Source: Candidatus Nealsonbacteria bacterium | Lineage (GTDB): Bacteria; Patescibacteriota; Minisyncoccia; Minisyncoccales; RBG-13-42-11 | Length of the DNA stretch: 64,000 nucleotides | Assembly (NCBI GenBank): GCA_026396115.1 | Contig: JAPLXL010000007.1 | Coordinates: 6,565-70,564, forward strand | Reading direction: 5' to 3' | Part shown: positions 1,949 through 2,138 of the stretch, piece after piece | Layout of the letters: each line of letters opens with the position of its first letter | How positions within the stretch are numbered: the stretch's first letter is position 1 | Program-made: the position numbers and the translations under genes | The notes under the pieces: generated by a model | What the model was told of the DNA's origin: nothing | Seen by the model: only the letters and a program-made list of their open reading frames with translations | Database searches by the model: none

Positions 1949-1980
1949 ATTTATTAAACAAATAAAAAATCTTTCAAAAT

Positions 1981-2017
1981 AAAAAACCCGCCCTTTATTA
2001 AGTAAAATTCGGCGGGG
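1981..2017 (-). terminator. Intrinsic terminator of leader cassette copy 1 (A-tract/T-tract on both sides, so potentially bidirectional)
   Basis: Minus strand reads CCCGCC - 18 nt A/T loop - GGCGGG followed by TTTTTTATTTT. It lies 33 nt upstream of the ATG at 1948. Confidence 0.6.
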
Positions 2018-2049
2018 TATTTTTTATTTTGTTGATTTCTCATATTTTT

Positions 2050-2083
2050 CCCTTGTGGTTAGATTAAAAATCCTTCCACTCAG
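2050..2083 (-). promoter_or_regulatory. Conserved leader hairpin, copy 1 (CTGA-GTGG-AA-GGAT-loop-ATCT-AA-CCAC-AAGG)
   Basis: Minus strand reads ctgagtggaaggatttttaatctaaccacaaggg. The same fold occurs at 6055..6086 and 22274..22306, with compensatory base changes. Confidence 0.6.
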
Positions 2084-2109
2084 TTGTGATATTTTTTATT
2101 TATTAATCT

Positions 2110-2138
2110 ATTTTATTCTCCACAAACAACCCTGTCAA
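2110..2138 (-). promoter_or_regulatory. Sigma-70-type promoter, leader cassette copy 1
   Basis: Minus strand: TTGACA (2138..2133), 17-nt spacer, TAAAAT (2115..2110). Confidence 0.7.

Follow-up and report, generated by a model that had tools for sequence, protein, structure and literature searches.

Within a stretch of 64,000 nucleotides (nt) of DNA from a Candidatus Nealsonbacteria bacterium (contig JAPLXL010000007.1, positions 6,565-70,564), which we call the window and whose positions serve as coordinates throughout, there is a compact leader cassette upstream of genes for surface proteins and glycan synthesis. It occurs exactly three times, always on the minus strand (c1, 2138..1981; c2, 6137..5985; c3, 22365..22185), and in each copy a promoter is followed by a conserved hairpin, an ATG that opens a short open reading frame (ORF), a terminator and the main gene. 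The original prediction described c1 as copy 1 of 3, which is correct, and the promoter, hairpin, A-rich tract and terminator that it read on the minus strand, together with the ATG at 1948, all lie where it placed them. It overlooked a fifth element, the ATG lying 5-8 nt past the hairpin, whose ORF overlaps the terminator. Because the short ORF overlaps the terminator, a ribosome-dependent attenuator is likelier than either a riboswitch or a site for a NusG-type factor. The features of the three copies are as follows (aa, amino acids).

c1 promoter, 2138..2110, minus strand: TTGACA (2138..2133), a 17-nt spacer and TAAAAT (2115..2110); 11/12 matches.
c1 hairpin, 2083..2051, minus strand: CU-GA-GUGG-AA-GGAU-uuuua-AUCU-AA-CCAC-AA-GG, from the fold and the covariance model; 59.6 bits.
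c1 short ORF, 1954..2043, minus strand: MRNQQNKKYPAEFYLIKGGFFILKDFLFV and then a stop codon; crosses the terminator, with the stop 5 nt 5' of the dockerin ATG.
c1 terminator, 2017..1981, minus strand: CCCCGCC, loop, GGGCGGG and T6 (taken as CCCGCC/GGCGGG, the loop has 18 nt).
c1 downstream gene, 1307..1948, minus strand: secreted protein of 213 aa with a dockerin domain (match to Dockerin_1, E = 4.6e-5).
c2 promoter, 6109..6137, minus strand: TTGACA, 17 nt, TAAAAT; 11/12 matches.
c2 hairpin, 6055..6086, minus strand: inner stem GGAC/GUCU, compensatory relative to c1; 54.8 bits.
c2 short ORF, 5961..6047, minus strand: MRNQQKKKYPAEFYLIKGGFFILKKRGL and then a stop codon; crosses the terminator.
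c2 terminator, 5985..6021, minus strand: CCCGCU, loop, GGCGGG, T6.
c2 possible second promoter, 3' of the terminator, 5954..5981, minus strand: TTGAAA, 16 nt, TACAAT; 10/12, a consensus match only.
c2 downstream gene, 4708..5922, minus strand: membrane-anchored protein of 404 aa with a Laminin_G_3 (LamG) domain.
c3 promoter, 22337..22365, minus strand: TTGACA, 17 nt, TATAAT; conserved in relatives of the c3 type.
c3 hairpin, 22275..22306, minus strand: CU-GA-GUGA-GA-GGAC-uaag-GUCU-GA-UCAC-AA-AG; 72.8 bits.
c3 short ORF, 22132..22266, minus strand: 44 aa; crosses the terminator, with the stop 1 nt 5' of the ATG at 22130.
c3 terminator, 22185..22227, minus strand: CCCGCUUUUUUU, loop, AAAAAGAGCGGG, T6.
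c3 downstream gene, 21381..22130, minus strand: sugar-nucleotidyltransferase; the start at 22130 is backed by a GTG at the same position in the related locus L014.

In c1 the promoter is separated from the hairpin by an A/T-rich spacer of 26 nt, and an A-rich stretch lies between hairpin and terminator. Among 115 promoter-like sites in the first 20 kilobases (kb), the promoters of c1 and c2 rank as the top two, and a complete primary sigma-70 factor is encoded in the window (33430..34674). Hairpin and terminator are predicted by RNAfold in c1, c2 and c3, with z-scores between -2.2 and -4.2. A simple terminator scan did not pick up the cassette terminators because their loops are long (13-18 nt). 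The short ORFs begin at 2043, 6047 and 22266 and have 29, 28 and 44 codons, not counting the stop; the start context of the c1 ORF lies at the 87th percentile among all ATGs. No equivalent of the possible second promoter of c2 is present in c1 or c3.

The dockerin protein downstream of c1 is 100% identical to a protein from a Candidatus Nealsonbacteria metagenome-assembled genome. The LamG gene after c2 is followed by genes for a LytR_C protein and for a membrane protein of 556 aa, and c3 stands at the head of a long operon for glycan synthesis, which encodes a flippase, glycosyltransferases, an aminotransferase and others and extends to about 6847. c1 and c2 have 93% identity over a 92-nt core repeat (1972-2063 and 5976-6067) and precede unrelated genes, while c3 is a more diverged copy. 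Over the promoter and hairpin region (2040-2138 and 6044-6137), c2 is a near-copy of c1. In the syntenic locus L025 (5513-5563 and 9855-9906) the orthologous cassette has another promoter, short ORF and terminator with the same hairpin, and taken together these comparisons suggest that leader modules are replaced or gene-converted within a genome. The c1/c2 repeat of 165 nt was also considered as a miniature inverted-repeat transposable element, and this was rejected since its ends, inspected by eye, lack terminal inverted repeats.

The hairpin comprises 32-33 nt forming three short helices that are split by two symmetric 2x2 purine loops. We have assembled 24 copies, three from the window and 21 from sediment metagenomes and relatives, giving 23 distinct sequences. 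In this collection 98.3% of the cells in ten proposed base pairs are standard pairs, compared with 24-48% for slid registers. Two-sided changes are found at three pairs (16-34, AU/GC; 21-29, AU/GC; 22-28, CG/UA), and the observed covariation score was reached by none of 500 shuffles, a result to be read with the caveat that the scan pattern fixed several of the tested columns and that the sequences are related. Purines (RA/RA, either GA or AA) make up the internal loops in all but one case, and the G19-U31 pair is invariant, also in copies that were found without the pattern. G-U pairs are tolerated within the hairpin and A-C pairs are avoided, and we therefore consider that it is conserved as an RNA structure rather than as a DNA operator. 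The terminal loop is variable (UUUUA, AUUUG, UAAG, UUAA, CUU, GAAAA and others). Calculated folding energies range from -5 to -13 kcal/mol, and the hairpin lies some 15-23 nt from the predicted 5' end of the transcript.

The 31-nt hairpin string gave no match in 100 shuffles, and the covariance model gives the three window copies 55-73 bits and nothing else in the 276 kb searched more than 18 bits. When a tight hairpin pattern was run against 185,579 GTDB species representatives, there was a single chance match, located inside a cyanobacterial coding region. A looser pattern that allowed for covariation gave 16 loci in Joint Genome Institute (JGI) metagenomes, mostly from one sediment sample series, essentially all of which are true cassettes. 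A looser pattern gave no matches in the IMG/VR viral contigs, on which ground a phage or mobile-element signature was rejected. Successive covariance models (R1 and then R2) built from the pattern matches recovered additional copies not reached by the pattern (L018B, L015A, L010B, L025a/b, L027 and L028; the sequences of L025a/b, L027 and L028 were obtained through homologues of the dockerin protein). True copies score at least 48 bits and noise at most 18 bits. In the next genus out (L003-L006, where the nucleotidyltransferase is 77-88% identical), no hairpin was found by pattern or covariance model. The original prediction had tied its case to recurrence and covariation in related genomes; in those checked, the cassette is present and its hairpin covaries. 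On these sequence comparisons the cassette is real, conserved, present in multiple copies and, since the GTDB representatives gave only the one chance match, restricted to a narrow clade of the candidate phyla radiation (CPR).

Of the 24 copies, 21 have a GC stem with T5-T7 behind it, among them all three in the window. The stems differ between cassette types (CCCGCC/GGCGGG, CCCGCU7/A6GAGCGGG, CCGCC/GGCGG, CUCCACC/GGCGGAG and CCCAUUCCU/AGGAAAUGAGG), and a U-run always follows. Among c1 orthologues the closing pair of the terminator changes in a compensatory way, from C-G to U-G to U-A. We looked for terminator covariation within the c3 type, where the sequences proved too alike; support comes instead from the comparisons between types and between orthologues. 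No consistent alternative antiterminator was found when the RNA was folded up to the 3' arm: the 5' arm pairs upstream with 0-5 of its 6-9 nt, and with partners that differ by type. A part for the hairpin in an antiterminator was accordingly set aside, as no alternative fold was found.

The short ORF is under selection to extend as far as the terminator. An ATG lies 5-8 nt past the hairpin in 21 of 24 copies, and in the 20 copies that have both ATG and terminator the 5' arm of the terminator follows the ATG at a distance of 26-41 nt. In none of these 20 does the ORF stop 5' of the terminator 5' arm. The stop codon lies within the terminator loop or 3' arm in six copies (L014, L015A, L018B, L020, L023 and L025b) and past the U-run in eleven (c1, c2, c3, L009, L010B, L011, L016, L018A, L019, L022 and L027), and the remaining copies have no separate stop, the short ORF being fused in frame to the main ORF (L010A, 313 aa; L015B/L028, about 317 aa from the ATG; L025a). 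L007, which is seen in part only, has its stop in the terminator loop. Counting stop codons between the ATG and the 5' arm over the 20 cassettes gives none in frame 0, 43 in frame +1 and 28 in frame +2. The stop-free frame 0 holds over about nine sequence types with unrelated short ORFs (beginning MRNQQNKKYPA, MKNLNSFRLIESIPA, MSNLDIQKALR, MNNLNITKSTPP, MDNLKITKSIPP, MNNFNIIKNIRL, MKKLKTAKKIIRL, MINCKFLNNINNKNPF and MKEIISKSFNRKP). The contexts of the AUGs are like those of real gene starts: scored against all ATGs, their median falls near the 86th percentile. In L010A the main protein has no other start codon ahead of its signal anchor, so the cassette AUG must be used there.

The encoded peptide is not maintained, and neither is the frame in which the terminator is read. 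Within the c3 type there are about five synonymous and ten non-synonymous substitutions, and indels in a T-run shift the frame over the terminator while the overlap of ORF and terminator is kept in every case. A conserved small protein was rejected on these substitution counts, and also because the c1/c2 and c3 peptides are unrelated, the frames read through the terminator differ and indels in L007 give an early stop. Selection thus appears to act on translation itself and not on the peptide product. Two further possibilities were considered and rejected. For phase variation of the cassettes, there is no copy in an OFF frame among the 20, nor is there a simple repeat in the window cassettes. 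Programmed frameshifting or in-frame fusion as the normal state was also discarded, since three fusions in about 20 copies is close to what chance in-frame indels would give.

Transcription must pass the terminator if the downstream genes are to be expressed. The cassette of L010B starts 30 nt past the stop codon of one gene and precedes the next in the same operon, with no promoter of its own. L015 has two cassettes in tandem: the second hairpin lies 27 nt past the first terminator, the gap contains no promoter, and the ORF of the second cassette (L015B) runs on into the main gene. Where the short ORF is the start of the main ORF (L010A, L015B/L028 and L025a), the gene can be expressed only by read-through of the terminator. 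In c1 and c3 just 27-55 nt are left before the gene, with no promoter there. Read-through is therefore required, because of the promoterless copies, the in-frame fusions and the gaps of c1 and c3. A hairpin and an AUG accompany each terminator, also where cassettes lie in tandem or inside an operon, and this fits a local rather than a processive mechanism.

The original prediction had offered a choice between a small RNA (sRNA) gene and a cis-acting leader that is read through. The promoterless copies, the fusions and the lack of room for a gene promoter favor the cis-acting leader, leaving the sRNA gene the less likely of the two, with one orphan locus (L023, below) that fits it. A terminated RNA of about 120 nt should be produced in either case, and a dual role as an sRNA is conceivable. 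Starting from what is observed, namely the anatomy of the cassette, its conservation and covariation, the frame that stays open into the terminator and the requirement for read-through, we consider the chances about even that each cassette is a cis-acting, ribosome-dependent transcription attenuator to which the hairpin has been added as a recognition element. We infer that ribosome and terminator compete. Transcription would start at the near-consensus sigma-70 promoter, and the hairpin would be the first structured element to emerge. The start codon 5-8 nt beyond it would open the short ORF, whose path enters the terminator. A ribosome that loaded fast and trailed the RNA polymerase would cover the 5' arm of the terminator, preventing the terminator hairpin from forming, so that the surface or glycan genes would be transcribed. 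If no ribosome loaded, the transcript would end at the U-run as an RNA of about 120 nt. Transcription of the envelope genes would thereby be tied to the rate of initiation and elongation at the cassette AUG.

This scheme has precedents. In the pyrBI and pyrE leaders of Escherichia coli, a leader ORF runs through the attenuator hairpin and a coupled ribosome blocks termination, with no need for an antiterminator fold. The pyr attenuators sense uridine triphosphate (UTP) through pausing of the polymerase in U-rich tracts before the attenuator. The cassette resembles these leaders in that its ORF crosses the terminator and no alternative antiterminator fold is present; it differs in that nothing equivalent to such a pause module can be seen across the cassette types, that the pyr leaders have no conserved 5' hairpin, and that initiation there is led by a Shine-Dalgarno (SD) sequence whereas the present genome is almost free of them. 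Another parallel is the pil1 locus of Streptococcus gallolyticus (Danne et al. 2014, PMC3894217), where a promoter, a leader ORF and an intrinsic terminator also precede cell-surface genes, and where transcription is ON, through ribosome occupancy, when the stop codon of the leader peptide lies within or downstream of the terminator. That ON configuration is the one found in 20/20 cassettes. Switching of pil1 follows from a changing number of GCAGA repeats, which the window cassettes lack; pil1 has no conserved hairpin 5' of the start codon, and the cassette is multi-copy. More generally, a terminator located in the first 100 bp of a coding region works efficiently as long as no ribosome is near, and ribosomes at a terminator or in its vicinity repress it (PMC4824070). 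We propose the occupancy mechanism because it is the established behavior of early-coding terminators (PMC4824070), of pil1 (PMC3894217) and of pyrBI. Most likely the cassette is a translation-coupled attenuator of a known kind, in which the added conserved hairpin and the multi-copy use at envelope genes are what is new.

In more distant relatives (L038:188-301 and L031:1-50), the leader of a WxL/WxLIP/fn3-dockerin operon has a 37-codon short ORF ending in the U-run of its terminator, with no hairpin of the R2 model. Just 5' of the terminator, the ORF contains a (GA)n repeat, of some 4.5 units in L038 and 8.5 or more in L031, where the contig breaks within the repeat. From its arrangement this leader looks like a case of pil1-style phase variation. 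The comparison suggests that the short ORF and terminator are the core device and that the hairpin is a clade-specific addition.

The invariant purine loops, the G-U pair and the fixed position of the hairpin, at the 5' margin of the region where the ribosome binds, suggest that it is a recognition element that sets the speed of initiation at the short ORF. This role, too, is one that we infer. A protein operator would be the most likely function, followed by a standby or docking site for the 30S ribosomal subunit, and then by a 5' stabilizer against nuclease. It is possible, though on present evidence doubtful, that the hairpin is the operator of a dedicated RNA-binding regulator, or a 30S dock, gating the short ORF and with it transcription of an envelope regulon. 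If so, the regulon would include the adhesin-like dockerin and cohesin proteins, the LamG proteins and the glycan operon, the regulator-gated hairpin would constitute an undescribed class of protein-gated, translation-coupled attenuator, and this would be, to our knowledge, the first cis-regulatory RNA family defined in Candidatus Nealsonbacteria.

Two other roles for the hairpin region were examined and set aside. Sequestration of an SD sequence by the base of the hairpin is uninformative here, as about 45 of the 53 gene starts in the window have no SD-like motif within 30 nt; since the genome is almost SD-free, there is no need to read the purine-rich 3' base of the hairpin as a ribosome-binding site. 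A lower stem, in which the 5' flank pairs with the AUG region, is seen in minimum free energy folds, but its duplex energies are no better than those of shuffled sequences (z-scores of -1.2 to +0.9, except for -2.5 in L010A and -2.1 in L025b). As a separate observation, a TATAAT box precedes the ATG by 7-10 nt at several gene starts (52443, 29968 and 61903..63432 among them), which suggests leaderless mRNAs for several genes of the window.

Several points weigh against the ribosome-dependent attenuator. The model does not itself require a conserved hairpin, and so leaves this element unexplained. The distance from the AUG to the end of the U-run is about 80 nt, giving a ribosome little time unless the polymerase pauses, and no pause signal was found in the cassettes. 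Some copies depart from the anatomy: L021 lacks both ATG and promoter, L013 has GTG where the others have ATG, L012 has a 9-codon ORF and no terminator, and L017 has neither ATG nor terminator after its hairpin. L023 is an orphan, with no gene to regulate. Lastly, the pattern through which most copies were found fixed many hairpin positions, and many of the copies are closely related, so that the counts overstate the number of independent events.

Two of these loci merit description. In L017 (10660-11006), which is truncated, a promoter and a hairpin of the L023 type are followed by at least 246 nt of non-coding-looking sequence with long-range complementarity. In L023 (4026-4077, minus strand) a promoter, hairpin, 16-codon ORF and terminator have no co-directional gene 3' of them; a tRNA gene (4304-4377) is oriented divergently from the unit, and a DEAD-box helicase gene (2667-3917) convergently with it. 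An Rfam search of L017, L023 and L009 gave nothing besides a tRNA.

The strongest competitor to the ribosome-dependent attenuator is factor-dependent antitermination, in which the hairpin would recruit a protein (a NusG paralogue like LoaP, an N/boxB-like factor or an antagonist of NusA) and the short ORF would be incidental. The order of promoter, hairpin, terminator and long operon is the same as in the LoaP-dependent dfn and mln leaders (PMC12691694), where a small conserved 5' hairpin and then an intrinsic terminator likewise precede long and costly operons. The invariant purine loops and G-U pair set among covarying stems suggest specific recognition, and terminators with large loops may depend on NusA. 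However, the LoaP hairpin has a UNCG tetraloop, whereas in the cassette the terminal loop is variable and it is the two 2x2 purine loops that are conserved; moreover, LoaP acts independently of the ribosome while the cassette conserves an AUG and an open frame into the terminator, leaving the stop-free frame and the fixed spacing of hairpin and AUG unexplained by antitermination. The targets also fit the biology of RfaH, which acts at ops (JUMPstart), and of the Bacteroides UpxY proteins, as these too involve a leader element that heads long glycan or surface operons and is needed to pass termination signals. The cassettes lack ops, which is an element of DNA (GGCGGTAGnnTG); at up to two mismatches it has no match inside the three window copies. 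UpxY is encoded by the first gene of each locus, whereas the first gene here is the nucleotidyltransferase. No NusG/KOW protein was found among 28 proteins scanned, all from the 64-kb window. A processive factor would have no need of a separate hairpin for each terminator, even 27 nt past another cassette. We regard antitermination as unlikely overall, but as a serious rival.

If the units were instead independent sRNA genes, each would make a trans-acting RNA of about 120 nt belonging to a sibling family, perhaps serving as a decoy for a hairpin-binding protein, and the downstream genes would be expressed separately. Most copies do have a strong promoter and a terminator of their own, the 5' hairpin is conserved among several paralogous copies per genome, a short RNA is the only product possible at the orphan L023, and the possible second promoter of c2 lies past its terminator. 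This explanation is nevertheless distinctly unlikely. It does not account for copies that lack a promoter and lie within operons or behind another cassette, for the in-frame fusions to the main ORF in three relatives, or for c1 and c3, where there is no room for a promoter for the gene. The region between hairpin and terminator differs wholly between types and has no conserved seed, and frame-specific avoidance of stop codons is a mark of translation.

It is less probable still that the cassette is a passive module that senses nothing, with the hairpin stabilizing the RNA against 5' exonuclease, the terminator acting as a leaky insulator and the short ORF being a copied relic of the 5' end of a gene. 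High expression is probable for the envelope genes targeted, the hairpin folds with -5 to -13 kcal/mol, there is no alternative antiterminator pairing, and the terminator of c1 may also end the upstream operon, as there is no other terminator between the upstream gene (end at 2190) and c1. The near-identity of c1 and c2 before unrelated genes suggests that a module has been copied. Yet relic ORFs in AT-rich DNA would gain stop codons, and in frame 0 there are none in 20 copies of some nine types. A stabilizer would leave the invariant purine loops, the G-U pair and the spacing of the AUG unexplained, and the hairpin lies about 15-23 nt from the predicted 5' end of the RNA rather than at that end.

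We consider it very improbable that the cassette is a small riboswitch, or an amino-acid attenuator of the classical type that switches between terminator and antiterminator folds, because in spite of the leader position, the terminator and the frequency of Asn and Lys codons in the short ORFs, which matches their A-rich composition, there is no Rfam family, the hairpin of just 32-33 nt has no pocket-like junction, the 5' arm has no consistent upstream pairing and the short ORFs contain no run of a single regulatory codon. The original prediction did not recognize a named riboswitch or leader class, and we agree: at the gathering threshold Rfam returned only three tRNAs from the window, and in E-value mode there was sub-threshold noise, the best at c1 being PyrG_leader with 22.7 bits against a threshold of 65. 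Attenuators of the trp and his type have mutually exclusive folds and a run of regulatory codons, neither of which is found in the cassettes. Leaders that respond to antibiotics or to stalling, such as the bmrCD leader (PMC4191407) and the erm and msr leaders, also place a short leader ORF and a terminator before the gene and let ribosome position decide termination; there a stalled ribosome triggers exclusive folds upstream of resistance genes, whereas the cassettes have no alternative fold and precede envelope genes.

CPR bacteria, or Patescibacteria, are uncultured episymbionts with tiny genomes and few classical transcription factors. Here three copies of the cassette lie within 22 kb, at a glycan operon and at several secreted adhesin-like proteins, which plausibly mediate attachment to the host. 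If the ribosome-dependent attenuator is correct, transcription of envelope and adhesin genes would be coupled to translational capacity by a compact and copyable RNA module, and not by transcription factors. The cassette would also be a natural case of intrinsic terminators that lie within translated sequence near the start codon. The hairpin models R1 and R2 offer a handle for searching metagenomes for the regulon, and the hairpin itself could be used as bait for its binding partner.

Other elements of the window were noted in the course of this work. Two similar terminator-like elements, AAAAAACCGCC-loop-GGCG with A/T-rich flanks (repeat family D7), lie between minus-strand genes at 25349-25392 and 27575-27618, and matches to GGCGGTTTTTTG at 22912, 25366, 26926 and 27592 are ordinary terminators of this AAAAAACCGCC-loop-GGCG kind. 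An unrelated element is present in four copies on the minus strand (about 41482-41536, 52330-52384, 54347-54401 and 63898-63942) and consists of two short hairpins whose stems covary. The first is GAAGARRGC..GCYYUCUUC and the second takes the forms GCUUUCAC-UGC-GUGAAAGC, GCUUCC-UUCG-GGAAGC and GCUUUUGC-UUU-GCAAAAGC; a conserved linker, UUUACCUUCGC, connects the two hairpins, and UCGGUUU comes after them. The element has no Rfam match, and in two copies it abuts a start codon, that of a 988-aa ORF (49365..52331) and that of an M48 peptidase ORF (40574..41494).

The window also encodes a pair of genes resembling a cyclic-oligonucleotide-based antiphage signaling system (CBASS) on the minus strand (28017-29508), comprising a SMODS nucleotidyltransferase (28612..29508) and a Cap15 effector with a cyclic-dinucleotide receptor domain (28017..28628), and a TdeIII-type restriction endonuclease lies at 32192..32974. 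Finally, the segment 3' of the dockerin gene (1-534) contains tandem direct repeats with a period of 261 nt and 80-90% identity. The gene at the corresponding position in L016 and L025 is cohesin-like, and for this reason the segment probably encodes a repeat-domain surface protein.

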